Source: Candidatus Poriferisocius sp. (lineage in GTDB: Bacteria > Actinomycetota > Acidimicrobiia > Acidimicrobiales > Bin134). From it: a stretch of 64,000 nt of DNA. The stretch lies in NCBI RefSeq assembly GCF_965219815.1, contig NZ_OZ244791.1, positions 34,007-98,006 on the forward strand, read 5' to 3'. The notes under the pieces were generated by a model. It worked only from the letters and a program-made list of their open reading frames with translations. It searched no databases and was not told the origin of the DNA. Numbering within the stretch: the first letter of the stretch is position 1; each line of letters opens with the position of its first letter. Both the position numbers and the translations under genes were made by a program. This document shows positions 6,348 through 43,596 of the stretch, in pieces.

Positions 6348-7477
6348 GCCGCCGACCTCGCTGCCTGCTCGATATCAGCGGCGACCTTCCCGCTCTGATC
6401 TTGGATGCTCATGCTGCCAATTCGGCGCATCTCACCCACATGGTCCATGAGGTGGCGTCCGAAGTGCTCGGCCAGAAGAACCGGGACGGCGTTGCCGATC
6501 TGCTTGCCCTGGGAGGTGAGGCTGCCGGTGAACCGAAAGGAGTTCGGAAAGGTCTGGAGTCGGGCCGCTTCTCGCGCGCTGAGAGCCCGATCCTAGCTGG
6601 GGTGGCCGAAGCGCCCGTTGCTGTAGCTGAGGCACTTGGTGGTCAGTGTTGGCGCCGGACTGTCCCACCTCAACCTGCCGTACACGTCGGTGTGACCGTC
6701 AAAGCCTCCCTGGTGGCAGTCGGGCCAAAGACGGCGCGGCCAATCCCGGCGATCACCGCCCTCCGGCGTTGCCCGAATCCGCTTCAAGTTCAAGTCCGAG
6801 AGCATCATGGCCCTGTGGTTGCTGATGTCGGAATCCTCCTGCCCGGCTTCGATCGGGGGAAGAGAGCCGATCCAGTCTCGAATCGTCGAATGCGGCTCGC
6901 CGGCTTCGAGGCCATGGGTCGGAAGCGGCAGCTTGATGGGCCCGAGCCGGCTTGCCACCAGCACGAGACGGCGCCGCGTCTGCGGGATCCCGTAGTCGGC
7001 ACTCGAGATGATGTCGACGGACACGTCGTGTGTTTTGGACACCTCGTCCACGAACTCGGCCAAGGGGCCCCGCGAGGTGGACAGACGCTGCATCCCTGGG
7101 ACGTTCTCCACAAAGATCAGCTCTGGATTTGAGGCCTTCACGAACCGGAGAAACTCAAGCAGTAGGAACGACCGTTTGTCCAAGGCAGTCGGCCCGTGCC
7201 GGTGGCCTGAGAAAGGCTGACAAGGAGCGCACCCGGCAAAGAGCCTGATCGCCTCGCCGCGGGGCGGCAGCACCTCTTCCACCTCGTCAACCGAGAGGCT
7301 GAGGATGTCGCGCTCCAAAAACGTTGTCTCCGGGAAATTCAGCCGATATGTCGCCGCCGCATCCGAATCCCAATCGATGGCAAGCACAGGTTCGATGCCA
7401 GCATCGGCAAACCCCCGAGTCGAACCGCCGCATCCCGAGAAGAAGTCCGCCAGCACCACTCCTGCACTCATGTTCAT
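6344..7477 (-). pseudogene. DNA (cytosine-5)-methyltransferase interrupted by a single in-frame TAG (codon 295, nt 6593-6595)
   Basis: Upstream part carries motif I FFSGCGG, IV GCAPCQPFS, VI ENVPGM and VIII QTRRRLVLVA. The same frame after the TAG reads DRALSAREAARLQTFPNSFRF...QIGNAVPVLLAE (motifs IX and X) and runs to TGA at 6344-6346. Confidence 0.85.
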
Positions 7478-7825
7478 GGCTTTGCCCTCAGCGCGCTCAG
7501 CATGGGGAGTCCCCTTTCCTCACAACAGAAAGCAACTCGCTGGTTGGGCCTAAGCACCACCAGAAAGGCGACCGACCTAATGCGCACACCTGAACTCCAT
7601 TCTGACCAGCCAGCGCATGGTTCAAACACCGCTACAACAACATCGACAGTAAACCAGAGACCCATGACAAATTCCCATACTGGACCCCACTCGACCATCG
7701 CCACCAGCCGCTGTCGGTATCGGCAGCCGCCCGCAACCGGGCTTGGACCGGTCGGCATTGCGAGCAGTCCGCACGCACGCCAGCCGTAAACGCGCAACCC
7801 ATGATCGACCGAGTAGTTGTAGTGA

Positions 7826-7835
7826 GTCAGCTGAC
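7826..7835. promoter_or_regulatory. 10-bp perfect palindrome GTCAGCTGAC in the dcm / XRE-ImmA divergent intergenic region
   Basis: Read directly. Preceded by TGA, giving TGAGTCAGCTGAC, which is related to the palindrome at 7908-7921. Confidence 0.35.
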
Positions 7836-7907
7836 ATGGCAAATCACCTGTTATGCCTCTCAGCTTCTTGCCCATGTCGGCGCAACAAATCAGGTAAAGT
7901 TACGCGT

Positions 7908-7921
7908 TGAGTCATGACTCA
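7908..7921. promoter_or_regulatory. 14-bp perfect palindrome TGAGTCATGACTCA, candidate HTH operator
   Basis: Read directly. Lies 45 bp upstream of the XRE-ImmA start at 7966. Confidence 0.4.
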
Positions 7922-7965
7922 TCAGAATTCGTAACAAATCTGTCGTAGAGGGATCGGGGACTGCA

Positions 7966-9171
7966 GTGAGCCAGTTGGGAAAGGCGCTGGCGCGTGCTCG
8001 CACGAGCGCTCGCTACTCACAAGATGATGTGGGTGCCGCCCTAGGCATCAACCGGGCAATGGTGTCGTACTGGGAAGCCGGCACCCGAACTCCGAATGAT
8101 CGACAGTTGGGCGCAATGGCCCGGCTCTACGGCATCGAGCTGATCGATCTCGTCGAAGGCCGCGACGTCGACTCCGACGCCGACGACTTGGCGAGCATGC
8201 TTTTGCGTGCCAATGACGGCGTCGACCCTGGAGCCACTCCAGGCATCCGCGAGTTCGTCCAGTTCCTTGACCGCTACGCCGAGCTAGCTCGAATCGTGGA
8301 CGAACCCATCCGGGGCCTCTCCCAAAGCCCGTTCGTATTCCGGCAGAGGTTCTCTCAGAAGGACGACATTCGCCGCAAGGCAGAAGAGGTGCGCGATTAC
8401 CTCCGTCTCGGCTCGGCCCCGATTTCCGACCTAGACCCGGTTTGCGAGGCACTCGGTATCACCATCTACCGGGCGCGTCTCGGACCGGACCTGCGAACCT
8501 CTCCGTCAGGGGCGTTTCTCAAGCACCCTGAGGTGGGATTCTCGATCTTGGTCAATCTCGACATGACGCCGGGCCGGCGCCGGTTCACCGCCGCTCACGA
8601 ACTGGCGCATGCCCTGTTCCACAGTGACGAGACCAACCAGGTGCTCTCGCACGGCCGGGGTCCGCGCGAGATTTTCGCCGACGCGTTCGCTGGTGAGTTC
8701 CTCATGCCGAGTGAGGGTGTTCGACGCTTCGCCGAGGAGGTCGGTCTGCCACCTCGCATCAAGGACCCGGTCGACATCGTCCACATACAGAGGTACTTCA
8801 AGGTGTCGTGGCCCACGGCGCTCGTCCGGTTGCGCCAGATGAACGCCATTACACAAGTCACCTATACCGACCTCAGGGCCTCGGTTCGTCCGGTGTCGCT
8901 GGCTCGAGCCCTTGGATATGCCATCCATCCCGAAGAAGACATCCAGGATCCGGAGCTTTGGCGGATACGACGGTTCCCCCGGTCGTTTCTGCGGATGCTG
9001 CGTCACGCGGTAGTAACGGAGGTCATGTCGCCCCCCAGCGCCGCCGCCTTCGCCGGATTGGCCCTGCCTGACATTGTGCAGGTCCTCGGCAGTCCCCTCG
9101 GCGACGCTGAGCAAGAGTCACCGCATCTAGAGACTGAGTTCAATGAGTTCGAGGTCACGGGAGTTGTCTGA
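7966..9171 (+). CDS. XRE-family helix-turn-helix domain fused to an ImmA/IrrE-type zinc metallopeptidase domain
   Basis: N-terminus SQDDVGAALGINRAMVSYWEAGTRTPN is a typical HTH_XRE. HEXXH motif HELAHALFH with downstream FAGEFLMP is typical of COG2856/ImmA. Confidence 0.8.
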   Translation: MSQLGKALARARTSARYSQDDVGAALGINRAMVSYWEAGTRTPNDRQLGAMARLYGIELIDLVEGRDVDSDADDLASMLLRANDGVDPGATPGIREFVQFLDRYAELARIVDEPIRGLSQSPFVFRQRFSQKDDIRRKAEEVRDYLRLGSAPISDLDPVCEALGITIYRARLGPDLRTSPSGAFLKHPEVGFSILVNLDMTPGRRRFTAAHELAHALFHSDETNQVLSHGRGPREIFADAFAGEFLMPSEGVRRFAEEVGLPPRIKDPVDIVHIQRYFKVSWPTALVRLRQMNAITQVTYTDLRASVRPVSLARALGYAIHPEEDIQDPELWRIRRFPRSFLRMLRHAVVTEVMSPPSAAAFAGLALPDIVQVLGSPLGDAEQESPHLETEFNEFEVTGVV

Positions 9172-10314: not shown

Positions 10315-10734
10315 TCATGTTGTGGCCAATTGGACACGGCCGGTCTGTTGCGCCCACGCCCGGAGCTTTGCGTCCTTGGTAAGGAGTTCGTGCTGGTGGA
10401 GGATTGCTGTGGCGACAATGAGCTGGTCGGCGGGGTCTTGGTGGAATCCCTCGTCCACCAGGCTGGTGGCGTCCACCCAGAGTGATCCGGTGACGGGTAT
10501 CTCGCTCAGGCCCTGCCTCAGGACACCGGCACGCAATTCCTTGATGCCTGGGAGGGGTGGCAGATTTCCTCGTGGCTTTCTGCGCTTGACCTCCAGTTCC
10601 CAGAAAGTGGCGGCGGAGACGGCTGCCTCACCTCGGCTGATGGCTCGATCAATGCCATCAAGGATGGTCTGAGGCAGCTTGGCGGTGTCGCCGGTCACGG
10701 CCCACACCAAGACATGAGTGTCCAGCAAGATCAT
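10315..10734 (-). CDS. vapC: PIN-domain toxin (VapC family)
   Basis: MILLDTHVLVW start and the acidic residues typical of PIN. Sits downstream of a small antitoxin gene. Confidence 0.8.
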   Translation of the reverse strand: MILLDTHVLVWAVTGDTAKLPQTILDGIDRAISRGEAAVSAATFWELEVKRRKPRGNLPPLPGIKELRAGVLRQGLSEIPVTGSLWVDATSLVDEGFHQDPADQLIVATAILHQHELLTKDAKLRAWAQQTGRVQLATT

Positions 10735-10761
10735 GCAGTTCCTTCGGTGCAGGTGGGGGCG

Positions 10762-11028
10762 TCAGCCCCAGTCGTCGGCCATGCCGGTCACTGCCTCCGG
10801 GTCTATGACCGTTTCGCTAGGGTCGTCCCAGAAACCGGCGAACTCCGGAAAAAAGCCGCAAATGCCCGTGCCTTCGCCATGTGCCGGAACAAGACGGGAC
10901 ACTGGTGTGCCTCGTTTGGTGATGACAATCGGAATGCCGGTTTCGTTGACCTCATCCATGAGCTTCAGGCACTTGGCCTTGAACTCTCCGGCGGAAATAG
11001 TTCTTGGCTGCTGAGTCTCTATTGCCAC
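10762..11028 (-). CDS. Phd/YefM-family antitoxin
   Basis: 88 aa. ISAGEFKAKCLKLMDEVNETGIPIVITKRGTPVSRLVP is the classic Phd/YefM N-terminal fold signature. Confidence 0.8.
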   Translation of the reverse strand: MAIETQQPRTISAGEFKAKCLKLMDEVNETGIPIVITKRGTPVSRLVPAHGEGTGICGFFPEFAGFWDDPSETVIDPEAVTGMADDWG

Positions 11029-11079: not shown

Positions 11080-11850
11080 TTATCCGGTTTCAGGGCGGCG
11101 GGGGAGGAAGGCGCTGGTTCGCTGGATGTACTCGTCGTAGCCGGGGCGCTTTCGCTTCATGCGGTGCTCCACCATGGGCACGCCGGACACTTTGACCAGA
11201 ATCCAGGTGATGAGCGCCGGGGCGATCAGTCCCACGATTCCGATTGGTGTGGAGGCGGCTACCAAACCGATGCCCCACCAGGCGGTGGCGTCGCCGAAGT
11301 AGTTGGGATGACGGCTATAGCGCCACAGACCACGATCCATCAGCTTCCCCGCGTTGGCCGGATCTGCCTTGAACCGGGCGAGCTGCCAGTCGCCTGTGGC
11401 CTCGAAGCCGAAGCCGACCAGGAACACCACCGCGCCGATCACCCACAGTGCACTCCATCCCCGGTCGGCGTCGCTGATGCCGATCATGAGGGGAAGCGAC
11501 ATCACCCACATAGCCGCGGCTTGCAACCCGAACACCCGCACCAGGCTGGTGAGCCAGAAGCGATCTCCGGCTCTTCGGCGCATCGACTGGTAGCGGAAGT
11601 CCTCTTCTGCCCCGATGTTGCGAAACGCCAAATGGATGGCCAATCGCAATCCCCATGTGGTGGCCATGGCCACCAACAGGGCAGCCCGCACGCCGTGTCC
11701 GTCGGTGACCAGCAGGCTCACCCAGGCCGCCACCACAAAGCCGAAGCCCCACAAGATGTCGACGATGCCAGCGTCTCGAATCGCCACGCTGATGGCCCAC
11801 ACCGCCAGCATCATCCCGGCGATCACCGCCGCTACCACCCATAAGACCAT
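11080..11850 (-). CDS. DUF1295 / steroid-5-alpha-reductase-like polytopic membrane protein
   Basis: Multiple hydrophobic helices. WRYSRHPNYFGD motif is characteristic of the family. Confidence 0.7.
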   Translation of the reverse strand: MVLWVVAAVIAGMMLAVWAISVAIRDAGIVDILWGFGFVVAAWVSLLVTDGHGVRAALLVAMATTWGLRLAIHLAFRNIGAEEDFRYQSMRRRAGDRFWLTSLVRVFGLQAAAMWVMSLPLMIGISDADRGWSALWVIGAVVFLVGFGFEATGDWQLARFKADPANAGKLMDRGLWRYSRHPNYFGDATAWWGIGLVAASTPIGIVGLIAPALITWILVKVSGVPMVEHRMKRKRPGYDEYIQRTSAFLPRRPETG

Positions 11851-11952
11851 CTGCGATCAGCGTAGCGAGCGGTTGGCAGTGCTGGTATTTGGCCGATCAG
11901 CAAACACAGACAGGGTGATTGGAAGTTCGCCCGCCGCGTGTTCCTCGGCAGC

Positions 11953-13242
11953 TCAGCTCAGGAGCTCGATGCAGTGTTGGGCTCGGGTGGCGACTAGATC
12001 AACGAGGCGTCTGGGGAGGTCGGTGGGAAGTACTTGGATGGTGTTGTCGTGGGCAGCTTGGTCGAAGGCGGCGGGGAGGTTGCGGGCGAGATTGAGGATG
12101 CGGGTGATGGCCTCATTTCGATCCAACCCCAATTCATCGGCGGTTTTGTCCCACGCGCCGGGGCGATCGGTCCGTCGCAGCCGGTAGTCGCCCCCAATCT
12201 TCATGGCGAGGCTGATCTTGTGCCCCTTGCTCTTGTCGTAGGGCAGAAATGAGGCCACATCGTAGAGGGGCGCCAGGCGGGCCTGGGTGCCGGCGAGCAA
12301 CAGGCTGTAGTTCTTGGCGTGGGCATCGCTACCAGCGATCAGCCAGTTGAAGGCCAGCGCATCGAAGAACCCCCACAGATCGTTGGCTGCTCCACCTCCC
12401 GTCACCGCTGATCGCAGCAATGCGGCTACCTGTCCAGGTGAGGGACCACCGTCGGCCTGGTACTTCCGGGTGGGATGCAGCGACAGGGCTTGGCACAGGT
12501 CCTCGTGGTGAACACGGGTCAGGGTGCCCTGGCGTGAAACCCGGTCGAAGCGCTCCACAATGATGGCCGTCTGATCTTCAAACACGCCCATCTGCGGGCG
12601 GGCGGCACGCAGACCAGAGTTGGCCGCGGCCACCAGGCAGAGGTGCTCGTTGACGTCCAACCAGTCAAAGTCGGGAACGGTGGGCTTGAGGATATGCGTG
12701 GTCGGCACGTTGCCAGAGGGCTCACCCCACCCTTGTGCCGAGAAATGCAAAGCGGTCTTGGCCTGGGCGCCACCGAGGCTGAATTGACCGGTCCTTGCCG
12801 GCCCCAGCCAGGCGGTCGCATCGGCCTTCAGCGCTCGCAGACGAGCTGCGATATCTGCCTCGCTCATCTCGGATACATCGCCGCCTCGTCCTAGGAGATC
12901 GTCCACCGCCTCCGCTGGGCAGAACTGAACCGCGCCCGGACAGTCATATCCAACCTTGGTTCCCAACAGCGGAAACGGGTTGGCGATGGATACGCCGAAA
13001 TCGCGGCCCCAGCGGGCAAGCACATCGGCATTGTCGGGGAGCAGGCCCCAAAGCCATGGACTAACCCGGTGATCACTGTGCTCTTCGAGTTCTACGGGCA
13101 TTGACACCGACAATGGAGTCGCTGTCGGATTTGTGCGGTAGTCCTTGTGGTAGCGCAGACGCAGGCGGTTGTCGGTGAGGCGGCGAAGCTCACCCGCCAA
13201 TCGCCCGTTGATGATGACGGCGAGCATCGTCAATCGGCCCAA
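11953..13242 (-). CDS. hipA: HipA-family serine/threonine kinase toxin
   Basis: N-terminal HipA coupling region (GRLAGELRR...). Catalytic-loop-like GSDAHAKNYSLLL. Overlaps the upstream hipB-like gene. Confidence 0.85.
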   Translation of the reverse strand: MGRLTMLAVIINGRLAGELRRLTDNRLRLRYHKDYRTNPTATPLSVSMPVELEEHSDHRVSPWLWGLLPDNADVLARWGRDFGVSIANPFPLLGTKVGYDCPGAVQFCPAEAVDDLLGRGGDVSEMSEADIAARLRALKADATAWLGPARTGQFSLGGAQAKTALHFSAQGWGEPSGNVPTTHILKPTVPDFDWLDVNEHLCLVAAANSGLRAARPQMGVFEDQTAIIVERFDRVSRQGTLTRVHHEDLCQALSLHPTRKYQADGGPSPGQVAALLRSAVTGGGAANDLWGFFDALAFNWLIAGSDAHAKNYSLLLAGTQARLAPLYDVASFLPYDKSKGHKISLAMKIGGDYRLRRTDRPGAWDKTADELGLDRNEAITRILNLARNLPAAFDQAAHDNTIQVLPTDLPRRLVDLVATRAQHCIELLS

Positions 13243-13532
13243 GTGTCGATGTAGGCGTTTAGATCAAAGTTGTCCGGGTCGGAATCGACGGCTGCTCTCA
13301 GCGTGATGTTCAAATCCAGGGCGTCGAGAATCCACAGCACCCGCCCGACCTCGGCGGTTTGCTTACCGGTTTCCAGTTCGGAAAGCCACTGGCGCCCCAC
13401 TCGCGCCTTGGCGGCCAGTGCGGCCTGGGTTAGCCCTTGGTCCTTGCGGGATTGGCGAATAGCAGCACCGAGTTCCCGACAAGTTCGGATGGATCGCACC
13501 GGAAGCCTCCTTGGCCTAGCTTCTGTCGCCAT
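13230..13532 (-). CDS. hipB: HipB-like XRE HTH antitoxin
   Basis: 100 aa. LGAAIRQSRKDQGLTQAALAAKARVGRQWLSELETGK is an XRE HTH. Sits immediately upstream of hipA. Confidence 0.8.
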   Translation of the reverse strand: MATEARPRRLPVRSIRTCRELGAAIRQSRKDQGLTQAALAAKARVGRQWLSELETGKQTAEVGRVLWILDALDLNITLRAAVDSDPDNFDLNAYIDTWAD

Positions 13533-13650: not shown

Positions 13651-14409
13651 TTGTGGGTTGTGGGCTCCACCGACCACCATGTGCTGTTGACTTTCACCAA
13701 CCCGGTGATCGGTCAGGAGGCCCGGTATCACCAGTGGCACGACGTTCATCTCCGCGAGGTGGTGTCATGCGATGGGGTGGTCAGCGGGCAGCGCTACCGG
13801 ATGAGCCCCGACGCCGACACGCTGACACCCGGGTGGATGCGCACCCACGCCGACCGCAGCGATCTGCCGATGCCATTCGAGTTCTTGGCCGTGTATGAGA
13901 TTGAGGGCGACCTGGCCGCGGCCATCGAGGCGATTTCCACCAAAGACGACTATTCCATTCGGCCCGGTGACAGCCTCGACCACGACACGGTGGCCAGTTG
14001 GGCATTCACCCAGGCCGGAGCCCAGATCGGATCGGCCAGCCCCAGTGAGGTTGACCATCTCGGGATATCGCTGGCCAATCCCACCAAGGGCAACCTCGAG
14101 TGGTTTGAGCACTGGTACACCATCCACTACCGGGAAGTAATGGCGACCCCTGGCTTCCTCACCGGGCGGCGCTACTGGGCCGCCTCCAACACCCTCACCC
14201 CCCAATGGGCCATCGACCACGGTGAGACCGGAACCAACGGGATGCCGTTTCAGCACCTCGTTGTGTACGAAGTGGGCACACCGTACGCCGAGGCAAAACC
14301 AGCGCTAGAGGAGCAGCGGAAGAGCTTCACCGTCTTCCCCGACGGCGCCATGGACTACAACGAGATCATCGCCTGGCGTTACACCCCGTTCGGCGATCGA
14401 GCCGAGTGA
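13651..14409 (+). CDS. hypothetical protein made of two homologous ~120-aa halves
   Basis: TTG 13651 or GTG 13660 start within the long ORF. HVLLTFTNPVIGQEARYHQWHDVHLREVV...GQRYRMS is repeated as HLGISLANPTKGNLEWFEHWYTIHYREVM...GRRYWAA. Confidence 0.6.
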   Translation: MWVVGSTDHHVLLTFTNPVIGQEARYHQWHDVHLREVVSCDGVVSGQRYRMSPDADTLTPGWMRTHADRSDLPMPFEFLAVYEIEGDLAAAIEAISTKDDYSIRPGDSLDHDTVASWAFTQAGAQIGSASPSEVDHLGISLANPTKGNLEWFEHWYTIHYREVMATPGFLTGRRYWAASNTLTPQWAIDHGETGTNGMPFQHLVVYEVGTPYAEAKPALEEQRKSFTVFPDGAMDYNEIIAWRYTPFGDRAE

Positions 14410-14439
14410 CCTAGGACACCGATCTAACCTAAGAGCGCC

Positions 14440-14865
14440 ATGTCAGAAGAGATCAGAACCCTGTTGGCCCGCTATTCCGATGCAGTGTGCCGTTTCGACG
14501 CCGATCAGTGGGCGGCCACCTGGGCCACCGACGCAGTTTGGGAGATGGGCCCGATGACCAAGAGCGGTCGGGATGAGATCGCAACTTCTTGGAAGGGGAT
14601 GCTGGCTCGCCTTGACGGGGTGATCCACGCCTATCTCAACGGCTGGGTCGATCTGGATGAGGAGGCCGGCACCGGCACGGGGCGCTGGTACGTGATCGAG
14701 CACTTCAAGCGCCTCGGCGAAGGCCCCATGACCATGTACGGCTACTACGACGACGAATACTGCCAGGAAGAAGGCGAGTGGAAGTTCGCCCGCCGCGCCC
14801 TCCACCGCATCTACTACGGCCCGCCCGACATGTCCGGCGACTTCACGGGCTTCGGTCTCCAATAG
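14440..14865 (+). CDS. NTF2/SnoaL-like fold protein
   Basis: 141 aa. YSDAVCRFDADQWAATWATDAVWE and a C-terminal GEWKFARR pattern are typical of SnoaL-like/NTF2 proteins. Confidence 0.6.
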   Translation: MSEEIRTLLARYSDAVCRFDADQWAATWATDAVWEMGPMTKSGRDEIATSWKGMLARLDGVIHAYLNGWVDLDEEAGTGTGRWYVIEHFKRLGEGPMTMYGYYDDEYCQEEGEWKFARRALHRIYYGPPDMSGDFTGFGLQ

Positions 14866-14898
14866 TAAGAGTGTCGCAACCAATCTTGAAGGGGCTCA

Positions 14899-15924
14899 AT
14901 GTCTGACAAGCTCGCCAACATCTTGAAGAAGTCAGGAAGCACGGAAGCCGTCGACCCGACTATTCGCGAATACGAGCGCCGATTCAGGCAACTCAAGAAC
15001 AGCGATTCAGGCAGCGGGGAAGACGACCACGAAGAGTTCAACAATCTCTATTACGACGTGGCCACGGACTTCTACGAGTACGGATGGGGCAGGTCTTTTC
15101 ACTTTGCCCCCCGTGTCGCCGGGGAGAGCTTGGAGGCTTCCATCAAACGCCACGAGCACTTCTTGGCCCACAAGCTCGAGTTGCGACCTGGGATGGTTGT
15201 GGCCGACCTCGGTTGCGGCATCGGCGGCCCGCTATTGGAGATTGCCCGCTTTTCCGGGGCCAAGGTCGTCGGCGTGAACAGCAACGCCTACCAATTGGAA
15301 CGCGCCCGGAAGCTGGCGGAAGAGGCGAAGCTCACCCATCTGGCCGATTTCCTGCACTGCGACTTCTTGAACGTAGATGCCCCTGACGAGTCGTTCGACG
15401 CGGTGTACGGCATTGAGGCCACCTGCTGTGCCCCCGACAAAGAGAGCATCTATGGCGAGGCCTTCCGCTTGCTGAAGCCCGGCCAGTGCTTCGCCGCTCA
15501 CGAATGGTGTCTCACTGATCGCTTCGACGCTGAGAATCCCCTTCACCTCAAGATCAAGAACAACCTCCTGTTGGGAACCGGGCTGACTGACCTCGATGAC
15601 CAGCCAACCGTTGACCATGCGCTCAAGTCGGTGGGTTTCGAGATACTGGAAACAAGGGACCTCGCGATTCCAACCGGCCCGTCAATCCCCTGGTATCAAC
15701 CCCTGGTAAGCCCGGGATTCTCTCTGACGGGAATGCGGGCGTCGGCCATAGGACGCTGGATGACCACCCAGTCGCTACGGGTGCTCGAAGCGCTTCGCGT
15801 CGTGCCGCAAGGAGCAGTTCGCGTGTCGGAAACCCTGAACATCGGCGCGGAGGGCCTGGCCGAAGCAGGCAAGCTCGGCATCTTCACCCCGGCGTATTTC
15901 TTCCTCGCCCGCAAGCCGGATTAG
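14899..15924 (+). CDS. sterol C-24 methyltransferase (Erg6/SMT)-like SAM-dependent methyltransferase
   Basis: Collinear with yeast Erg6 by eye. Matches include YYDVATDFYEYGWGRSFHFA (SMT region I), ADLGCGIGGP (SAM motif I), YGIEATCCAP, and C-terminal LGIFTPAYFFLARKP (Erg6 LFTPMMLFVARKP). Confidence 0.8.
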   Translation: MSDKLANILKKSGSTEAVDPTIREYERRFRQLKNSDSGSGEDDHEEFNNLYYDVATDFYEYGWGRSFHFAPRVAGESLEASIKRHEHFLAHKLELRPGMVVADLGCGIGGPLLEIARFSGAKVVGVNSNAYQLERARKLAEEAKLTHLADFLHCDFLNVDAPDESFDAVYGIEATCCAPDKESIYGEAFRLLKPGQCFAAHEWCLTDRFDAENPLHLKIKNNLLLGTGLTDLDDQPTVDHALKSVGFEILETRDLAIPTGPSIPWYQPLVSPGFSLTGMRASAIGRWMTTQSLRVLEALRVVPQGAVRVSETLNIGAEGLAEAGKLGIFTPAYFFLARKPD

Positions 15925-15944
15925 CTCGATCAAGGAGGGTTTCA

Positions 15945-16970
15945 ATGTCTGTCAAGCTCACCAACGTCCTGAAGGACCAGGAAGCGTCCGCTGGCGTCGA
16001 TCCGGCCATCCGCGACTACGAGGACTTGTTCAATACGGCCAAGCAAAACGGATCGGAAGTCAGACAGCAGGGCTACGAGGAGTTCAACAACCTCTACTAC
16101 GACCTCGTGACCGACTTTTACGAGTACGGCTGGGGCACTTCCTTTCACTTCGCCCCTGGAGTTCCCGGCGAGAGAATGGAGACGTCGCAGCAACGCCACC
16201 AGCACCTCCTCGCGCACAGGATCGGCCTCGGACCCGGGATGACCGTCGCCGACCTCGGCTGCGGCATTGCCGGACCGCTGTTGGAGATCGCCCGCTTCTC
16301 TGGCGCCAAGATCGTCGGCGTCAACAGCAACTAATACCAGCTCAAGAAAGCTCGAAGGCGAACGGAGGAAGCGGGACTATCAGGCCAGGTGGAGTTCCTC
16401 CACTGCGACTTTTTGAACGTCGACGCTCCCGACGGGTCATTCGACGCCGTCTACGCCATTGAGGCCACCTGCTGTGCGCCGGACAAAGTCAGCGTTTACG
16501 GCGAGGCCTTTCGTCTACTGAAGCCCGGCGGGCACTTCGGTGCCTACGAATTCTGTCTGACTGACCGGTTCAACTCCCAAGATCCCCACCACCTCAAGCT
16601 CAAGACCGACATCGAACTGGGTGGCGGTTTGCTCGACATCGACTTCAAGCCAACCGTGGACAAAGCGCTGCAAACGGTGGGGTTCGAAATCGTGGAGACC
16701 CGGGACCTAGCGATTCAAACCCGCCCGTCGATTTCGTGGTATCAGCCCTTGGTGAGTCCGGGTCTGTCCCTGGCCGCTCTTCGCAAGGCAAGAGTCGGAC
16801 GCTGGATGACCCATCACCTGTTGAGAGCACTTGAAGCGCTTCGCTTGGCGCCACAAGGATCGGTTCGGGTCCACACGACCCTAAACCTCTGCGCAGATGC
16901 CATGGCCGAGGCGGGCCAGCTCGGCATCTTCACCCCCATGTACTTCATTCACGGCCGAAAGCCCGACTAG
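15945..16970 (+). pseudogene. second, tandem SMT-like methyltransferase with an in-frame TAA at codon 130 (16332-16334)
   Basis: 341 codons, collinear without indels with the upstream copy. GVNSN-TAA-YQLKKARR aligns with GVNSNAYQLERARK. All SMT motifs are present on both sides of the stop. Confidence 0.8.
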
Positions 16971-17692
16971 CGAGACGCTCGTTCAACCAGCCAGCCGAAG
17001 ATGGGGTCGGTGGGGCGGGTGGGCATCATCTCGGGGTGCCATTGGACGGCGACCACGTGATCTCCCATCTCCACGCCCTCGATGGTGCCGTCTTCGGCCT
17101 GGGCGGTGATGGTGAGGTCCCGGCCTAGATCGGCCACCGTTTGGTGGTGGAGGCTGTTCACCTGGGCTGAGGGGCCGTACAGCTCATGCAAGGTGGAGCC
17201 CTCGGCGAAGCTCACCTGGTGGATGGTGGAATCTATGGGCAAGTCGAAGCGGCCGTGTTCGGGCACGTGCTGGTGCAGCGTGCCGCCTTGGTGGACGTTG
17301 AGCACTTGGATGCCCCGGCAGATGCCCAGCACCGGGATTTCAGCTCTGAGGGCGGCAGAGAGCAACGCGAGCTCTAGATCGTCGCGCTCGGGCTCGAGGG
17401 GCAGTAGCTCGGGATCGGGATCGGCCCCATAGAGGATCGGATCGATGTCGGTTCCCCCGGGCAGGACGATCCCATCAAGCCGCTCCCCCACCGCGGCGGG
17501 GTCGACATCGATGGGGATGTGAACCGGGATGCCGCCGGCTTCGATGACACCGCGGGCGTAATCGGCCATGTACAGATCGACATCGCGCTGGGCCATCATC
17601 TCGGGAAAGCCGCTGATCTCCGATGCCTGCTTGCGCCGGCCCGGCAGTCCAATCAATGGGAGTTTTGTGGTCACCGAATTGTTCGCTTCCAA
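16967..17692 (-). CDS. gamma-glutamyl-amide hydrolase (PuuD-like, peptidase C26 class I amidotransferase)
   Basis: GICRGIQVLNV nucleophile-Cys motif. Downstream HHQ and VQWHPE motifs. Confidence 0.75.
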   Translation of the reverse strand: MEANNSVTTKLPLIGLPGRRKQASEISGFPEMMAQRDVDLYMADYARGVIEAGGIPVHIPIDVDPAAVGERLDGIVLPGGTDIDPILYGADPDPELLPLEPERDDLELALLSAALRAEIPVLGICRGIQVLNVHQGGTLHQHVPEHGRFDLPIDSTIHQVSFAEGSTLHELYGPSAQVNSLHHQTVADLGRDLTITAQAEDGTIEGVEMGDHVVAVQWHPEMMPTRPTDPIFGWLVERASR

Positions 17693-19892: not shown

Positions 19893-20612
19893 CTAGTCCG
19901 CCAGCACCTCGTCTAAATACCAATCGACAAAGGCATGGCACTGCTTGATGTTGGCCATCTCGTGCTGGCGGGTCTCCTCCATGAGCTGGTCGAAGTCCAC
20001 CCCGCACTCGTCCAAGTAGTCCTGGGGGGCCAGGCGAAGGAACGACTCCACGTGGGCCACGTCGACCTCGGGATGGAACTGGGTTCCCACCGTGCTGCCG
20101 ATCCTGATGAGCTGCACGGAGCTGTCGTTGCGGGCCAGCACATCGGCTCCGGGGGGCGGGGTGAACCGGTCGTGGTGCCACTGCATCCACGGCCCCGGTC
20201 CGGCCGGGTTGGGGCCGTCCTCTCCGTCGGCGAGCTCGAACCAGCCAATCTCGGTCACCGGTGACACCTCGACTTCTCCGCCCAGCGCCTCAGAGATGAG
20301 CTGCCCGCCAAAGCAGATCCCCAACACGGGCTTGCCCTCCTCGTGGGCTTGTCTGATCATGTCGAGCTCTTCGTAAATCCAGGTGTCGATCTCGTCTTTG
20401 TCGGTGAGCGTGCGCACCGAGCCCATGGGCAAGAGCAGGTCGTAGTCATCCATCGACGGGAAGGGCACGGCGACGTTGGGGTAGTCGTAGTCGTGGGTCA
20501 CCACATGGATGTGGACCTCGTAGCCCCGCTGGCGCAAGCGGGTGGCTATCTGGCCGGGGAGACCGTCCAACTCGTGGGCGATGGCCAGGGCGCGCTTCAC
20601 GGGCTGAACCAT
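19893..20612 (-). CDS. class I glutamine amidotransferase-like protein
   Basis: PVLGICFGGQLI nucleophile motif and FHPE. Start is ATG 20612, or GTG 20600 (GTGA overlap with the upstream stop). Confidence 0.7.
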   Translation of the reverse strand: MVQPVKRALAIAHELDGLPGQIATRLRQRGYEVHIHVVTHDYDYPNVAVPFPSMDDYDLLLPMGSVRTLTDKDEIDTWIYEELDMIRQAHEEGKPVLGICFGGQLISEALGGEVEVSPVTEIGWFELADGEDGPNPAGPGPWMQWHHDRFTPPPGADVLARNDSSVQLIRIGSTVGTQFHPEVDVAHVESFLRLAPQDYLDECGVDFDQLMEETRQHEMANIKQCHAFVDWYLDEVLAD

Positions 20613-21457
20613 AGATGCACCTGGCCGGTTCCCGCGACCGCCTCGTATTGGCCGAATTGCTCGCCAGCGGCAGTGCAAGCCGCCCCGCCGAGGGCACCCA
20701 CCATGGTCAGGTAGTGGCCGAAGAAGCCTTCGGGGGCGTGGGTGGAGAACTCCGGCAGGTACTCAAGCACCCCGGCGTGGTCGCCCTTGGCCAGGCATCC
20801 GATCACATACTCGTCGGCGGCTCTGGCCTCGGGCGTGCGGAGATGCCGCGCTGGATCGGCCCCCTCGTGATCTCGGAACTGGCGCAGCGGCCAGAACCGG
20901 TGGCTCAGACCACCGCTGGCCAACACCACTACCCGGCGGTCCAAGTTGGCCACAGCTTGGGCCAACAGCTCGCCGAACAGCAGGAAGTCATCGGGCTCGG
21001 CGGTCTGGCAGATGCTGGCCGACACCCAGGCCTCGTCGCCCTGGAGAAACGGCAGCAGGTTGATGGTGGGATAGTGAACCGGCAGATGGGGGTCGTCGAT
21101 GGCCGTAATCCAGGTGTCGTCCCGCCCGACGGCCTGGGCGGCCCACGCCTCAGCCAGCTCCCGGTCGCCGGGCATGTCATAGGGCACCTGGCACATGCCC
21201 CGGGGCAGCTCTTCTGAGGTGAACAGTCCGCCGCGGCGGTCATGGGAGGTCACGATGTGCTCAACGGTGGTGAACCAGTGGGTGTCCACCACCACCACAG
21301 TCTCGGCGCCAACTGGGCGCAGCCGCTGGGCACCCAGATCGTGGAGTCCCTGGTAAAGCGTGGTGTCCTCGCCGTCGTTGAGATATCGGCGAATCTCCTC
21401 AGGCAGCACCAGCGTAGGAACGTGGGATATCAGGCCAGCCCCGACAATCGCGCCCAT
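20597..21457 (-). CDS. class III extradiol ring-cleavage dioxygenase (LigB family)
   Basis: MGAIVGAGLISHVP...VVVVDTHWF pattern is typical of LigB-type catalytic subunits. Confidence 0.7.
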   Translation of the reverse strand: MGAIVGAGLISHVPTLVLPEEIRRYLNDGEDTTLYQGLHDLGAQRLRPVGAETVVVVDTHWFTTVEHIVTSHDRRGGLFTSEELPRGMCQVPYDMPGDRELAEAWAAQAVGRDDTWITAIDDPHLPVHYPTINLLPFLQGDEAWVSASICQTAEPDDFLLFGELLAQAVANLDRRVVVLASGGLSHRFWPLRQFRDHEGADPARHLRTPEARAADEYVIGCLAKGDHAGVLEYLPEFSTHAPEGFFGHYLTMVGALGGAACTAAGEQFGQYEAVAGTGQVHLWFSP

Positions 21458-21509: not shown

Positions 21510-22784
21510 TCACGCCACCTTGACCGGAAGCCGCTTGATCCCGGATATGAAGTTGGAGCGCAGCCGGTGGATCGGGCCGGCGGGCTCCAAACGGCTCACC
21601 CGCTTCATCAGCTCTTCGAACACCAGCCTCACCTCCATGCGGGCCAGCCAAGCCCCGAGGCACAGGTGCGGCCCGTTGCGGCCGAACGCCATGTGGTCGT
21701 TGTGCTCGCGACCCAAATCGAATCGGAACGGCCGCTCGAATCCCTCGGGGTCGTGATTGGCGGACACAAACCAGATCACCACCTTGTCCCCTGCCCGGAT
21801 CTGCGAGCCCCGCATCTCAACGTCGCAGGTGGCAGTGCGACGGAAGTGCATGGTGACCGATCCGCTGCGCAGAATCTCCTCCACCGCGGTGGTGGTCAGA
21901 CCGGGGTCGGACTGCCACGCCTGCCAAAGCTGGGGGTGGTTCAGCAGGGTCCACATGCCGTGGGTCATGGTGTAGCGGGTGGTGTCGTTGCCCGCGGCCA
22001 CCAGCAGGGTGAAGAAATTGTTGAACTCCAGGTCGGTGAGCGGGTCGCCGTCGATAGTGGGGGCCAGCAGCTTGGTGATGATGTCGTCTCGGGGACAGAC
22101 CCGCCGGTCGGCGGCCTGGTCTTGGGCGTACTGGAAGATCTCGATGGCCGCGGGACTGCGAAACGGGACCATCCGGAACTGCTCGGTGTCGGTGAGGTCC
22201 ACCGGAAAATCGGTGAAGTCGGGGTCGGTGTTGCCCAACAGTGCGTCGCCCCAGGCCACCAGCTTGCGGCCGTCGGTGTCGTCGGTGCCCAGCAGGCGAC
22301 CGAGCATCCTCATGGGGAGCTCCTCGGCGATGTCGTGGACGAAGTCGAACTCGTCGTTGGCCAGCGCTTTGTCGAGCACCTCCCCCACCAGCTCTCGGAT
22401 GGAGTATTCGAATGTCTCCACCGTCCGGCGGGTGAAGCCCTTGTTCACCAGGCGGCGCAGCCGGGTGTGCTCGGGGGGGTCCATCTCCATCATGGTGCGC
22501 CGGGCCTCGGTCTGCTCGGCGTCCATCTCCTCAAGGCGGATGCCCAGCGACGAGGTGAACGATTCGACGTCGCGGCTCACCGCCAGGCAGTCGTCGTAGC
22601 GCAGAATCGACCAGAACCCGGCCCCGTCGGCCTCCTCGGTCCAATGCACCGGATCTTCGGCCCGCAGCCGGGTGAACGTGGCGTGGGGGACGCCGGCCAC
22701 GTAGGTGTCGTGATCAGTGATGTCGGCGTTATCGGGGCCGAGGTCGGCCAGATAGTTGTCGGCATGGGCCGGGACGGCCATCAT
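21510..22784 (-). CDS. cytochrome P450
   Basis: Heme loop FGRNGPHLCLGAWLAR. EEILR (ExxR). AGNDTT I-helix. ATG 22784 overlaps the upstream stop (ATGA). Confidence 0.9.
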   Translation of the reverse strand: MMAVPAHADNYLADLGPDNADITDHDTYVAGVPHATFTRLRAEDPVHWTEEADGAGFWSILRYDDCLAVSRDVESFTSSLGIRLEEMDAEQTEARRTMMEMDPPEHTRLRRLVNKGFTRRTVETFEYSIRELVGEVLDKALANDEFDFVHDIAEELPMRMLGRLLGTDDTDGRKLVAWGDALLGNTDPDFTDFPVDLTDTEQFRMVPFRSPAAIEIFQYAQDQAADRRVCPRDDIITKLLAPTIDGDPLTDLEFNNFFTLLVAAGNDTTRYTMTHGMWTLLNHPQLWQAWQSDPGLTTTAVEEILRSGSVTMHFRRTATCDVEMRGSQIRAGDKVVIWFVSANHDPEGFERPFRFDLGREHNDHMAFGRNGPHLCLGAWLARMEVRLVFEELMKRVSRLEPAGPIHRLRSNFISGIKRLPVKVA

Positions 22785-23575
22785 TCGGATTCCATCGGGT
22801 TGGGGGCGGCCCACAGCGTGGTGCCCCCGGCCATGGAATTGCCCACCTGCCGGTAGTAGCCGTCGATGATCTCAAAGGGTGCTAAGCGGGCGAGCTCTTC
22901 GGTGGGGTTGTCGGGCAGCACCAGTTCGGCGTCGCCGCTGAACACGGGGCCGAGGTCGGCGTCGTAGCCCCGCATGGTGACCAGCTCATCCAGCGAGTCG
23001 CGCCCGTCCATCTCGATGGCCGGCATCTGGCGGCTGTGCAGCATGGGATGGCTGTTGACGAAACCGGGCGACTCGGCGTTGCCCCGGATGGTGAACTGAG
23101 CCTCGGCAATCCGCCGCCCCCATGTGCTGAGGGTGGCGCCGAACTGCCCCCCGGGCTCGAGCCGGGGTCCGGCCTTGCCGTAGGCCACCGGGCGGGTCAT
23201 CCAGATCTCGCTCATCTTCTTGGGGTAGCCCTGTAAGTGGCCCCGGGCCATGGCGAAGTCCTTGTCCACCCAGATGTAGGCCGCCCGGCTGAAGATCTGG
23301 CCCTGATAGGTGCAGCGAACCACTAAGAACACCTCCTTGTACTGGGCCCGGGCCGGGTCGAGGATCTCCTCGAAGGTGTCGCTGCAACTCTGCCAGTCGG
23401 CCCAGATGAGGGCCACGGCGCCGGGGTCGTCGTCGACCAGCTCCAGCGGCTCGGGGAGGAGCTCGGCCACATTGGGCGGATCGGTGCGGAACTCCACGGT
23501 GAGCATCTCTCCCGAGTAGTGCCACGGCGGACCCGGCAAGATGCTGCCAGCGCCAGTCGGCGTTCGGGGATACAT
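22781..23575 (-). CDS. acetoacetate-decarboxylase-family protein
   Basis: PGPPWHYSGEMLTVEFRTDP and overall ADC-like layout. Start chosen at ATG 23575; the ORF extends to 23743. Confidence 0.6.
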   Translation of the reverse strand: MYPRTPTGAGSILPGPPWHYSGEMLTVEFRTDPPNVAELLPEPLELVDDDPGAVALIWADWQSCSDTFEEILDPARAQYKEVFLVVRCTYQGQIFSRAAYIWVDKDFAMARGHLQGYPKKMSEIWMTRPVAYGKAGPRLEPGGQFGATLSTWGRRIAEAQFTIRGNAESPGFVNSHPMLHSRQMPAIEMDGRDSLDELVTMRGYDADLGPVFSGDAELVLPDNPTEELARLAPFEIIDGYYRQVGNSMAGGTTLWAAPNPMESE

Positions 23576-23608
23576 GAACCCTTGGAGGTCGGCCACGCCG
23601 ACAGTATA

Positions 23609-23626
23609 TTCGTTTGGTACCAAACG
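23609..23626. promoter_or_regulatory. 18-bp perfect palindrome TCGTTTGGTACCAAACGA (operator)
   Basis: Read directly. Sits in the divergent intergenic region between the ADC-P450-LigB operon and the acyl-CoA dehydrogenase gene. Confidence 0.6.
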
Positions 23627-23716
23627 ACTCAACTGGGCTAACGCAGACGAGCGCCGTGGAAATAGAGTCGAGGCTGTGGATAAGGGATTTGTGCCCATCA
23701 AGCGCCGGGAGGCGCC

Positions 23717-24928
23717 GTGATGCTCGCCGATCTTGCAGCACAAGATGGAGTGCTGACCCCCGAGCGAGCCGCCCTCGTGGAGCGGGTTCGAGCACTAGGC
23801 CCGGGACTGGCGGCACGCGCCGCCAAAAATGACCGGGACGCGGCCTTCCCCTTTGACAACTGGCACGAAATGGCTGACGCCGGATTGCTGGGCATCTGCA
23901 TTCCCGAGTCGGCGGGCGGCTTGGGCGCCGACTTCGTGGGCTATGCCCTTGCGTCCGAAGAACTCGGGCGACACTGTGCCGCCACCGCATTGACCTTCAA
24001 CATGCACGTGTGTACCACGCTGCTGGTGGGACAGATCGCCGACGATATGGATCTGGACTCCCAAGAGCAGTCCGCGCTGCACGCGCGCCGGGCCGGGCTG
24101 TGGCAGGGCATTGTCGAGCAGGGTCACATTCACAGCCAGCCCTTCTCGGAGGGAATCGCCGCCGGGGCCACCGAGGGGTATGCCACCACTGCCGTGCCGG
24201 TGGACGGCGGCTACCGGGTGAGCGGGCGGAAGATCTTCGCCTCGCTCAGCGGAGCGGCTCACATCCACAACGTCGTGTGCGTAGTGGAGGGCGACCCCCG
24301 GATCCGCCTCCTGGGCGTGGCTGCCGACTCCGAGGGCCTGCACATCGAGGGCGACTGGGATTCGCTGGGGATGCGGGCCACCGACTCCCGCAATTTGCTG
24401 CTGGAGGATGTGTTCGTGCCCGCCGAGCGCGAGTGGCTACCGCCGGGGATGTTCGACCAAGCCGCGGCCCGGTGGCCGTACTTCTTCATGACCCTGTCGT
24501 TCGCCTACATGGGCCTGATGGGGGCCATCATGGACGCCACCGCCGAGTACCTCATCGGCGACGGCGGTCCGACGGCCAAGCGCTCCCACCCCATCAAACA
24601 ACAGGGCTGGGCTGAGATGAACCTCATCTACGACCGGGCCCAGGCGCTGTGCTACCGGGTGTTGGGCGAGTCCGGAGTCGATCCCGAGCCAGCCGCGGTG
24701 CGGCGGGCGTGGAGCTCGATGGTCACCACCATGGACGGCGCTCCCCAACTGGCGTCATTGGCGCTGCGGGTGTGCGGCGGGCGAGCCCTGCTGCGGCCGT
24801 CTCGCCTGGAGCAGTTCTACCGCGATGCCCGGTGCGGCGCGGCCATGCACCCCTGGAGCATGGATGTGTGCCTCGAACGCCTCGGCCGAGCCAGCCTCTT
24901 TGACGACGCCACCGAGACTCCGGTGTGA
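23717..24928 (+). CDS. acyl-CoA dehydrogenase family protein
   Basis: 403 aa. ACAD-like N, middle and C domains (e.g. FTFNMHVC, GRKIFASL). GGGAGG RBS upstream. Confidence 0.75.
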   Translation: MMLADLAAQDGVLTPERAALVERVRALGPGLAARAAKNDRDAAFPFDNWHEMADAGLLGICIPESAGGLGADFVGYALASEELGRHCAATALTFNMHVCTTLLVGQIADDMDLDSQEQSALHARRAGLWQGIVEQGHIHSQPFSEGIAAGATEGYATTAVPVDGGYRVSGRKIFASLSGAAHIHNVVCVVEGDPRIRLLGVAADSEGLHIEGDWDSLGMRATDSRNLLLEDVFVPAEREWLPPGMFDQAAARWPYFFMTLSFAYMGLMGAIMDATAEYLIGDGGPTAKRSHPIKQQGWAEMNLIYDRAQALCYRVLGESGVDPEPAAVRRAWSSMVTTMDGAPQLASLALRVCGGRALLRPSRLEQFYRDARCGAAMHPWSMDVCLERLGRASLFDDATETPV

Positions 24929-25986
24929 TCAAGAGGCGCGTTTCTATGGTCGAAAGTGCCTGGGTGCAGCGGTACGCCGAGCAGTTCGAAGCGTGCAAGC
25001 TGGCGCCGACCGAGACCGCGGTTGTGCTGTCGGAAACCCGGAGCCGACCCGAGATCGTGCAGACCGCCCGCCTGGCCCTGTCGCAATTCGGAGTCGCCCC
25101 CGTGGATGTGGTGGTCACCACTCCGCCCAACCCCGGGCCGCTGCCGATCCGCTCCACCGGGGCGTCGGTTGCACTGGCCGCCAACCCGGCGGCACTGGGG
25201 GCGCTGTCCAATGCCGACTTCATCGTGGACTGCACGGTGGAGGGGCTGCTCCACGCTCCCGAGCTCGGCCCGATCCTGGCCAGCGGGGCCCGGGTGCTGA
25301 TGATCTCCAACGAGCATCCGGAGAACACCGAGCGGTGGCCCCACGACCCGACCCTGGCCGATCGGGTGGCAACCGGTGTGGCTCTACTGGAGCAGGCCGA
25401 GATGATGAATGTGGTCTCCAACGCAGGAACCGACCTTACCGTCGATCTCACCGGCGCAGTGCGGGCCGGGTCGCACGGCTGGTGTACCGATCCGGGGACC
25501 ATCGCCCACTGGCCCGGCGGCCTGGTGCTGGCGTTCCCCGCCGCGGGAACGGTGAACGGCGCAGTGGTGCTGGCCCCCGGCGACGTGAACCTCACCTTCA
25601 AGGAATACGTCCGGGATCCGGTGACGCTGACCGTGGTGGACGACTACATCACCGCCATCGAAGGCAGCGGGGTGGACACCGATCTGTTCCGCTCCTACTT
25701 GGCTGCCTTCGAGGAGTCCGACGCCTACGCCGTGAGCCACGTCGGCTGGGGCATGAACACCTCGGCCCGTTGGGAGGCCATGGCGCTGTGGGACAAGGCC
25801 GACCACAACGGGACCGAACTCCGGGCTTTCGCTGGCAACTTCCTGTATTCCACCGGGGCCAACGAGGTGGCCGGTCGATTTTGCCGGGGGCACTTTGACC
25901 TGCCAATGCGGGGCTGCACGGTGACCTTGGACGGCACGCCAGTGGTGGTGGCGGGCACGTTGGTAGCCGAGCTGCTTCCTGCTTGA
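24925..25986 (+). CDS. NicX-like (2,5-dihydroxypyridine 5,6-dioxygenase / M29 aminopeptidase-fold) protein
   Basis: VSHVGWGMNTSARWEAMALWD...RAFAGNFLYSTGANE...GHFDLPMRGCTV aligns by eye with the P. putida NicX C-terminal half. GTGA overlap with the ACAD stop. Confidence 0.65.
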   Translation: MIKRRVSMVESAWVQRYAEQFEACKLAPTETAVVLSETRSRPEIVQTARLALSQFGVAPVDVVVTTPPNPGPLPIRSTGASVALAANPAALGALSNADFIVDCTVEGLLHAPELGPILASGARVLMISNEHPENTERWPHDPTLADRVATGVALLEQAEMMNVVSNAGTDLTVDLTGAVRAGSHGWCTDPGTIAHWPGGLVLAFPAAGTVNGAVVLAPGDVNLTFKEYVRDPVTLTVVDDYITAIEGSGVDTDLFRSYLAAFEESDAYAVSHVGWGMNTSARWEAMALWDKADHNGTELRAFAGNFLYSTGANEVAGRFCRGHFDLPMRGCTVTLDGTPVVVAGTLVAELLPA

Positions 25987-43594: not shown

Positions 43595-43596
43595 GG

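Follow-up and report, generated by a model that had tools for sequence, protein, structure and literature searches.

The stretch of Candidatus Poriferisocius DNA analysed here (the window, 64,000 nt in length) carries at 13651–16970 a group of four genes, the last two of which, SMT1 and SMT2, are tandem homologues of sterol C-24 methyltransferases (SMTs). The explanation of this locus that we consider likely as a whole is that SMT1 is an intact bacterial sterol C-24 methyltransferase and that SMT2 is an old paralogue, recently inactivated in this strain by an in-frame TAA codon. Candidatus Poriferisocius is a sponge-associated genus of the Acidimicrobiales order, placed by NCBI in the family Candidatus Hopanoidivoransaceae. 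Motif positions 81, 83 and 249 follow the numbering of yeast Erg6, and the related loci compared with the window are designated L001, L002 and so on.

By every sequence test available, SMT1 and SMT2 are true proteins of the Erg6/SMT family, and we regard this assignment as well supported. In both of them, class I methyltransferase domains precede the Sterol_MT_C domain (PF08498), which was detected at 78.7 bits in SMT1 (E 3.5e-22) and at 81.9 bits in SMT2 (E 3.6e-23) with a cut-off of 21.7 bits, the match spanning profile positions 2–65 of 66 in both copies. The end-to-end alignment with yeast Erg6, which the original prediction had made by eye, was reproduced at ~42% identity for both copies, SMT1 having 42% over 349 aligned columns (E 1e-92). 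The Erg6 reference sequence and its numbering were checked against a preprint (10.64898/2025.12.19.695621), where 27 of 27 yeast or conserved residue identities matched. Regions I–IV of SMTs are conserved in both copies, and each retains all 25 of the 25 residues conserved in functional SMTs, including GWGxxFHF, DxGxGxxGP, E195 and G217. Region I reads YEYGWGRSFHF in SMT1 and YEYGWGTSFHF in SMT2, and the S-adenosylmethionine (SAM) motif of Region II reads DLGCGIGGP and DLGCGIAGP, respectively. The motifs quoted in the original prediction, including Y(G/A)IEATCCAP and FTP(A/M)YF...RKP, are thus found in both copies, with LGCGIGGP itself in SMT1 and LGCGIAGP in SMT2.

An exhaustive cluster search among 1.8 billion representatives returned 387 clusters at E <= 1e-30. 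Beyond the cluster that contains the query, the named relative with the highest rank comes from rice, a cycloartenol C-24 methyltransferase 1-like protein (49% identity), followed by a chytrid SMT (45%), Cladosporium Erg6, and homologues from Willaertia, Polyangiaceae and Dadabacteria. Named eukaryotic and bacterial SMT representatives of the 50% clusters show 40–49% identity and are covered over their whole length; unnamed metagenomic clusters and named bacterial matches have an identity similar to that of eukaryotic SMTs. Among the relatives found, no non-sterol methyltransferase comes near SMT-level similarity, and the non-sterol methyltransferases in PDB match only the methyltransferase core (residues ~50–200, best E ~1e-20). 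All matches in NCBIfam, which has no SMT model, lie far below their cut-offs. By these matches, and with a tree that is distance-based (neighbour-joining) and has no outgroup, the proteins group with SMTs rather than with other methyltransferases. Since the Sterol_MT_C domain is present and the proteins group with SMTs, the homology claimed in the original prediction withstood both the profile searches and the phylogeny proposed as checks on it. The ratio of nonsynonymous to synonymous substitution rates (dN/dS) of SMT1 against its relatives is 0.08–0.11.

Proteins of the SMT family bind SAM through the DxGxGxxGP motif and methylate the sterol side chain at its delta-24 double bond, as do Erg6 and the plant SMTs. 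SMT1 would bind SAM through the same motif; its aromatic Region I (YEYGWGxSFHF) would hold the side chain of a sterol for methylation at the delta-24 double bond, and the resulting carbocation would be resolved to a 24-methyl or 24-methylene sterol. The two copies share Tyr81 and Tyr83, and they differ at position 249, which is Thr in SMT1 and Gly in SMT2. Because SMT1 combines Tyr81, Tyr83 and Thr249, it is predicted under the published position-249 rule to methylate once, adding a single carbon, or perhaps twice, and SMT2 would have been the copy capable of further alkylation. Whereas family membership, the stop codon, synteny and distribution were observed directly, we infer that the substrate is a sterol, how often it is methylated and from where it is supplied, either by de novo synthesis encoded elsewhere in the genome or by the host. 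Gly249 is required, though not enough by itself, for the addition of a third carbon; G249T mutants still gave C28 and C29 products, and four of four propylating enzymes have Phe at position 81 and/or 83 (preprint 10.64898/2025.12.19.695621). The full propylating signature (Gly249 together with Phe81 or Phe83) is present in neither SMT1 nor SMT2 and in 28 of the 90 clade members.

A scan of species-representative genomes identified 537 related loci, and the detailed counts given here refer to the best 80 of these 537. Twenty of the best loci belong to the Acidimicrobiales order of the class Acidimicrobiia, several of them named Candidatus Poriferisocius; most have 75–98% identity to SMT1 and five have 65–70%. 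The class Dehalococcoidia of the Chloroflexota accounts for 53 loci (61–70% identity to SMT1), Latescibacterota for two (63–64%), and Caldilineaceae for one (66%), and four come from genomes classified only as 'bacterium' (64–85%). Many of the best 80 loci are carried by complete chromosomes of 2–5 Mb. The clade of 341-amino acid SMTs is monophyletic with respect to all other SMTs in 60 of 60 neighbour-joining bootstraps. Its members retain ~65% identity across phyla, suggesting that it would have spread by horizontal transfer within sponge microbiomes, among symbionts of several phyla. The original prediction had described bacterial SMTs as rare, which fails for sponge symbionts in view of the 537 loci found here and of a published enrichment (PMC9531527).

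The SMT1 and SMT2 proteins are 66% identical without a single gap. Four families of direct repeats (D1–D4), all with a spacing of 1046 nt and an identity of 73–80%, define the register of the tandem units, which begins 16 nt upstream of the ATG. The claim that the duplication takes in the region of the ribosome-binding site is therefore real as far as this register goes, but it is not diagnostic, because orthologues from other phyla have similar sequence upstream. The original description of two 341-codon paralogues likewise stood in part: the homology is clear, but SMT2 is not open, and the TAA at codon 130 makes an open reading frame (ORF) finder split it into pieces of 129 and 193 amino acids. 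The codons around this site read AAC TAA TAC in the window, AAC GCA TAC in L001 and L002, where the middle codon encodes Ala, and AAC GCC TAC in SMT1. Exact-sequence searches did not find the same TAA allele elsewhere; a search with an exact 21-nt sequence in the Joint Genome Institute metagenomes gave one match, on an AT-rich contig without similarity to the window. Exact look-ups with SMT1, the 129-amino acid fragment of SMT2 and the SnoaL_4 protein gave no match either, which indicates that the source assembly is absent from the collection searched. The dN/dS of the window SMT2 against its intact orthologues is 0.06–0.24, suggesting that the stop is either recent or an error.

Apart from the window, only L001/L002/L004, L009, L010 and L011 have SMT2, which is intact in L001, L009, L010 and L011, and most sister genomes are without it. 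In the single-copy genomes, the stop codon of SMT1 is joined directly to the sequence that lies 3' of the SMT2 stop in the window, so that the difference in copy number amounts to one 1046-nt unit, and the tandem second copy would have been gained or lost as such a unit. A recent tandem duplication in situ was considered and rejected: the synonymous divergence (dS) between SMT1 and SMT2 is ~1.2, and only 12 of 60 bootstraps place SMT2 as the sister of the SMT1 clade; 38 of 60 group it with an Acidimicrobiia gene from another bin (L018). At the same position, L054 has only an SMT2-like, non-SMT1 gene, with 68% identity to SMT2.

As judged from these comparisons, SMT2 would be a pseudogene in this genome, or its TAA a base-call error. 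A less likely alternative is that both copies are functional and the TAA arose in sequencing or assembly, in which case the Thr249 and Gly249 enzymes would split the first and the later methylations between them, as plant SMT1 and SMT2 do. The otherwise undamaged state of SMT2 (no frameshift, 25 of 25 key residues, and the low dN/dS given above) argues for two functional copies, as do the strong AAGGAGG ribosome-binding site ahead of SMT2 and the intact pairs in the four loci listed above. However, TAA and GCA differ at two adjacent bases, which is untypical of a single-base error, and SMT2 is evidently dispensable. Since most sister genomes lack SMT2, its decay in one strain is to be expected, and the decay of an optional gene in a single strain is a simpler reading than an error.

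Several observations weigh against our explanation of the locus as an intact SMT followed by an inactivated paralogue. There is a minor but real chance that the TAA is an assembly error. With regard to substrate supply, the 64-kb window contains no gene for sterol synthesis and none for sterol uptake or transport, nor did a crude motif scan of the 80 best loci reveal a cyclase at a distance of up to 10 kb. The tested bacterial SMTs and those of the window were compared by family and residue set. In vitro activity was seen in only four of ten further homologues, and four that retain the conserved residues showed none, two sterols having been tested (preprint 10.64898/2025.12.19.695621).

The arrangement of the locus and of its immediate neighbours is given in the table. 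The four genes lie on the same strand with intergenic gaps of 30, 33 and 20 nt, in this order, which reproduces the coordinates and the spacing of 20–33 nt reported originally. Scans of the window with Rfam found no family, and promoter and terminator scans gave background level only.

Table. Genes and sequence features of the SMT locus and of the region immediately upstream, in window coordinates.
Feature	Position	Strand	Description or basis
PIN / Phd-YefM toxin-antitoxin module	10315–11028	-	PF01850 and PF02604
DUF1295 membrane protein, steroid-reductase-like clan	11080–11850	-	PF06966, E 2.9e-72
HipA/HipB-type toxin-antitoxin module	11953–13532	-	HipA_C, Couple_hipA, HTH_31
Gene for 252-amino acid protein	13651–14409	+	Lineage-restricted; modelled as a fusion of two ferredoxin-like domains of the dimeric alpha+beta barrel (ABM) type
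SnoaL_4 (NTF2-like) gene, 141 amino acids	14440–14865	+	PF13577, E 2.9e-21
Two tandem units (ribosome-binding-site region and coding sequence), 1046-nt register	14883–16974	+	Direct-repeat families D1–D4
SMT1, 341 amino acids, intact	14899–15924	+	Sterol C-24 methyltransferase homologue; Sterol_MT_C
SMT2, paralogue of SMT1, 341-codon unit with in-frame stop	15945–16970	+	Sterol_MT_C; stop (asterisk) in the translation
TAA nonsense codon, SMT2 codon 130	16332–16334	+	Codon comparison with relatives and with SMT1

The 252-amino acid protein has no match in Pfam or NCBIfam, and its relatives form only 19 clusters in a database of 5.8 billion proteins, nearly all of them from the same lineage. It was correctly described as a tandem-repeat protein, its halves being 30% identical (E 3e-22). 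The AlphaFold model (predicted local distance difference test score, pLDDT, 87; predicted template modelling score, pTM, 0.88) has two fused ferredoxin-like alpha+beta barrel domains, and the Foldseek matches to this model include the anthrone-oxidase-like structure 5f9p, the monooxygenase PenE and sulfur oxygenase reductase (E ~1e-8). The SnoaL_4 profile likewise bears out the NTF2/SnoaL-like assignment of the 141-amino acid protein. The hint that the latter might be related to ketosteroid isomerases found no backing, as PDB and Pfam searches revealed no specific similarity to these enzymes and the only PDB matches are a scytalone-dehydratase-like protein (3ef8, E 1.5e-3) and Rv3472 (E 5.6e-3). 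The membrane protein gene upstream does belong to DUF1295 as originally assigned, matching PF06966 with 243 bits over profile positions 1–235 of 235. This family shares a clan with sterol reductases, and the protein also matches Steroid_dh with 28.6 bits (cut-off 22.6) and, weakly, the SRD5A structures (E 0.008).

The original prediction had combined these neighbours with the SMTs into a sterol- or triterpenoid-modifying operon. In its full form, this reading makes DUF1295, the double-barrel protein, the SnoaL_4 protein and the SMTs one tailoring operon in which, for example, DUF1295 would carry out a delta-24(28) reduction of the methylated product and the small barrel proteins would isomerise or oxygenate it; we consider it unlikely. 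It draws on the short gaps between the four genes, on the membership of DUF1295 in the sterol-reductase clan with a Steroid_dh score above the cut-off, and on a gene order shared by the Acidimicrobiales loci, including those whose SMT identity is as low as 75%. The conserved order is a YscW-like gene, the divergent DUF1295 gene, the 252-amino acid protein gene, SnoaL_4, SMT1 and a C26 peptidase gene, and in L001 and L002 DUF1295 is directly divergent from the 252-amino acid protein gene. However, the three neighbours accompany an SMT only in Acidimicrobiales (Poriferisocius-like) loci, and none of ~60 loci from other phyla has them. Moreover, in L003, L008, L012 and L054 SnoaL_4 and the SMT are 3–8 kb apart, and the unrelated genes in between include those for hydantoinase A/B, for a P450, and for a sugar ABC transporter together with its GntR regulator. 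The operon reading is weak because the neighbours travel with the SMT in one lineage only and unrelated genes are inserted between them. It is further weakened by the breadth of the DUF1295 family and by the HipA/HipB module that parts DUF1295 from the rest in the window. The one distant homologue of the 252-amino acid protein with an informative context adjoins a glyoxalase gene and two SnoaL_4 genes, with no SMT, and the same glyoxalase, SnoaL_4 and 252-amino acid protein trio occurs in L087, a sponge metagenome contig of a Poriferisocius-like lineage. This arrangement suggests that the barrel protein and SnoaL_4 may make up a separate small module. From the comparison of loci, the 252-amino acid protein, SnoaL_4 and DUF1295 are best described as lineage-specific neighbours and not as demonstrated pathway partners; a role of DUF1295 as delta-24(28) reductase is conceivable but finds no support in this comparison.

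The junctions of the locus differ between genomes. The HipA/HipB module lies between DUF1295 and the 252-amino acid protein gene in the window only and is absent from this position in L001–L017, and the PIN/Phd-YefM module, located between the YscW-like gene and DUF1295 in the window, is absent there from L001 and L002. Sister genomes have restriction and HEPN genes, hydantoinase genes and transporters inserted at the same junctions, so that the locus appears to be an insertion hot spot. Between DUF1295 and hipA, positions 11911–11953 of the window contain a relic resembling the 3' end of SnoaL_4 (GDWKFARRVF versus GEWKFARRAL; 80% identity over 40 nt), which may have been left behind when a rearrangement introduced the toxin-antitoxin module.

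In agreement with the original prediction, neither squalene epoxidase nor oxidosqualene cyclase was found among the ~50 window ORFs scanned, and the same scan detected no CYP51, C-14 reductase or SdmAB. The lack of sterol genes in the window and beside most of the 80 orthologous loci, together with the inactivity on two tested sterols of some homologues that keep all conserved residues, would be accounted for if the substrate of these proteins were not a sterol but some other lipid of the bacterium or of the sponge, for example a different isoprenoid or an olefinic lipid, and no sterols were made or modified. We find this improbable, since nothing is lost from the sterol-binding Region I or from the 25 functional residues and most of the tested bacterial homologues are active on sterols. 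Sponge tissue is, in addition, rich in delta-24 sterols. Sterol-type neighbours also occur elsewhere in the clade: in six Dehalococcoidia loci, one or more of three sterol-type genes (for a Rieske/KshA_C oxygenase, an MMPL/sterol-sensing-domain transporter or a GPP34-P450 fusion) are found no more than 10 kb from the SMT orthologue, and three of the six have a second, divergent SMT. This gene context supports a sterol role for the clade.

The GPP34-cytochrome P450 fusion is clustered with the Rieske/KshA_C oxygenase in the Dehalococcoidia loci L083 (identical to L062; 6407–14465), L025, L041, L077 and L082, and most of the loci with the fusion also carry the MMPL/sterol-sensing-domain transporter and a divergent SMT. 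The best solved relatives of its P450 part are CYP51 proteins, at a weak level of similarity (E 2e-19). The fusion has been described as exclusive to sponge symbionts and proposed to serve the evasion of phagocytosis, with no mention of sterols (PMC11706023); its sterol-gene context suggests a role other than phagocytosis evasion.

That the SMT genes are eukaryotic (sponge or algal) DNA misassembled into a bacterial contig is effectively refuted: the first-listed named relatives outside the clade are indeed eukaryotic SMTs, though with bacterial homologues of similar identity, but the same gene recurs with bacterial synteny in many independent assemblies, including complete chromosomes of 3.4–4.1 Mb, the genes have no introns, possess bacterial ribosome-binding sites and resemble their flanks in G+C content and codon bias, and the clade stands apart from all eukaryotic sequences in every bootstrap.

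A more far-reaching scenario, which we put forward as speculation and think rather unlikely, is that Poriferisocius-like symbionts without a cyclase re-tailor delta-24 sterols of the host by means of a solitary SMT, possibly together with DUF1295 and the two small barrel proteins. If so, part of the 'sponge' pool of 24-alkyl sterols, and of the corresponding fossil record, would be made by bacteria that are unable to make sterols, and the Thr249/Gly249 tandem pair with its frequent loss would tune the number of carbons added.

Elsewhere in the window, two P450 genes (21510–22814, minus strand; 35134–36405, plus strand) belong to the CYP124/CYP125 group of terminal hydroxylases of sterols and branched lipids, matching a reconstructed CYP125 ancestor with E 5e-121 and 4e-107 and the Mycobacterium tuberculosis CYP124/CYP125 proteins with E ~1e-70. 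Each lies near a glutamine-synthetase-like gene, an arrangement that suits gamma-glutamyl amine catabolism no less than sterol oxidation. Degradation of steroid side chains was considered as a context for these P450s and rejected as unsupported: the presumed heteromeric acyl-CoA dehydrogenase partner turned out to be a NicX-like dioxygenase, the window has no KshA, KstD or Hsa genes, and the proximity of glutamine-synthetase-like genes fits amine catabolism better. The dioxygenase in question (24925–25986, plus strand) is similar to NicX-like 2,5-dihydroxypyridine dioxygenase (PDB 7cn3, E 1.5e-53; no Pfam match), and its neighbours (20597–21457 and 22781–23743, minus strand; 23717–24928, plus strand) encode a LigB-type dioxygenase, an MppR/acetoacetate-decarboxylase-like protein and a type-2 acyl-CoA-dehydrogenase-like flavoprotein. 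The gene content of this region suggests a pathway that cleaves the ring of an aromatic or N-heterocyclic compound.

Stretches rich in defence and mobile genes were found at 1930–9171, 38377–47021 and 62253–63683; they include genes for HEF_HK/Response_reg_2 proteins, a C5 DNA methylase, an M78/HTH regulator, an insertion sequence (IS) integrase, a type III restriction-modification pair, and DUF5343 and Swt1-like HEPN proteins. The window also encodes a serpin of 476 amino acids, a eukaryote-like protein typical of sponge symbionts. Two ORFs, at 55108–57825 (plus strand, 905 amino acids) and 47421–48737 (minus strand, 438 amino acids), have a coding-like G+C content at third codon positions and no Pfam match. 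ARAGORN called a 97-nt tRNA-Ala(GGC) at 26206–26302 on the minus strand, inside a periplasmic binding protein gene; no Rfam tRNA was detected at the gathering threshold, and the call is probably a false positive.

Side-chain-alkylated steranes serve as fossils of early eukaryotes and sponges, and each confirmed bacterial source weakens this inference. The principle of bacterial SMTs in sponge symbionts, including Acidimicrobiia, their in vitro activity and their horizontal transfer are already published, so that the present find adds to what is known without altering it. Desmosterol was methylated in vitro by eight of ten sponge-symbiont and 12 of 14 environmental bacterial SMTs, three of these bacterial enzymes made 24-isopropyl side chains, and single bacterial SMTs can perform all steps (Brown et al. 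2023, PMC10070321). The SMTs of that study and of a 2025 preprint by the same group share with those of the window the family, the domain pair, the conserved residues including position 249 and the demosponge habitat, and contigs with two or more SMTs are on record there as well (as entries marked '1 of 2'). Their clusters often contain a cyclase or sdmAB, whereas the locus described here has no sterol-synthesis neighbour and one of its copies is inactivated.

In metagenome-assembled genomes (MAGs) of Ircinia symbionts, including Acidimicrobiia, SMT1/ERG6 is reported to be enriched, together with LSS (lanosterol synthase), CYP51 and ERG24, and clusters of cyclase, CYP51 and ERG24 genes with signs of horizontal transfer were reported from Acidimicrobiia, Dehalococcoidia and other classes (Kelly et al. 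2022, PMC9531527). The authors relied on KEGG annotation, built trees of cyclase, CYP51 and ERG24 but not of SMT, and gave no description of a tandem pair, of presence/absence polymorphism or of local synteny. The closest loci (95–98% identity) may come from the same MAG set, to judge from isolate labels such as jk18... and p16....

Compared with the eukaryotic enzymes, SMT1 is colinear end to end with Erg6 and with the rice SMT1-like protein (42% and 49% identity), with which it has Regions I–IV and Sterol_MT_C in common, but the window SMTs are shorter than Erg6, missing ~25 N-terminal and 14 C-terminal residues and a loop of seven residues, and they differ from Erg6 and plant SMT1 in their bacterial gene context and in forming their own clade. 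The plant SMT1/SMT2 pair is similar by analogy only, in that the two 66%-identical paralogues of the window also differ at a residue controlling alkylation; unlike in plants, the second copy is optional in the lineage and broken in this genome. What the present analysis adds to the published systems is the pairing of a Thr249 with a Gly249 copy, the polymorphism in copy number, and a clade that extends across phyla and is usually solitary in its placement. The locus is a well-anchored SMT example from an abundant lineage of sponge symbionts, and it belongs to an SMT clade that is common to several symbiont phyla, usually not located beside sterol-synthesis genes, and variable in copy number between strains.

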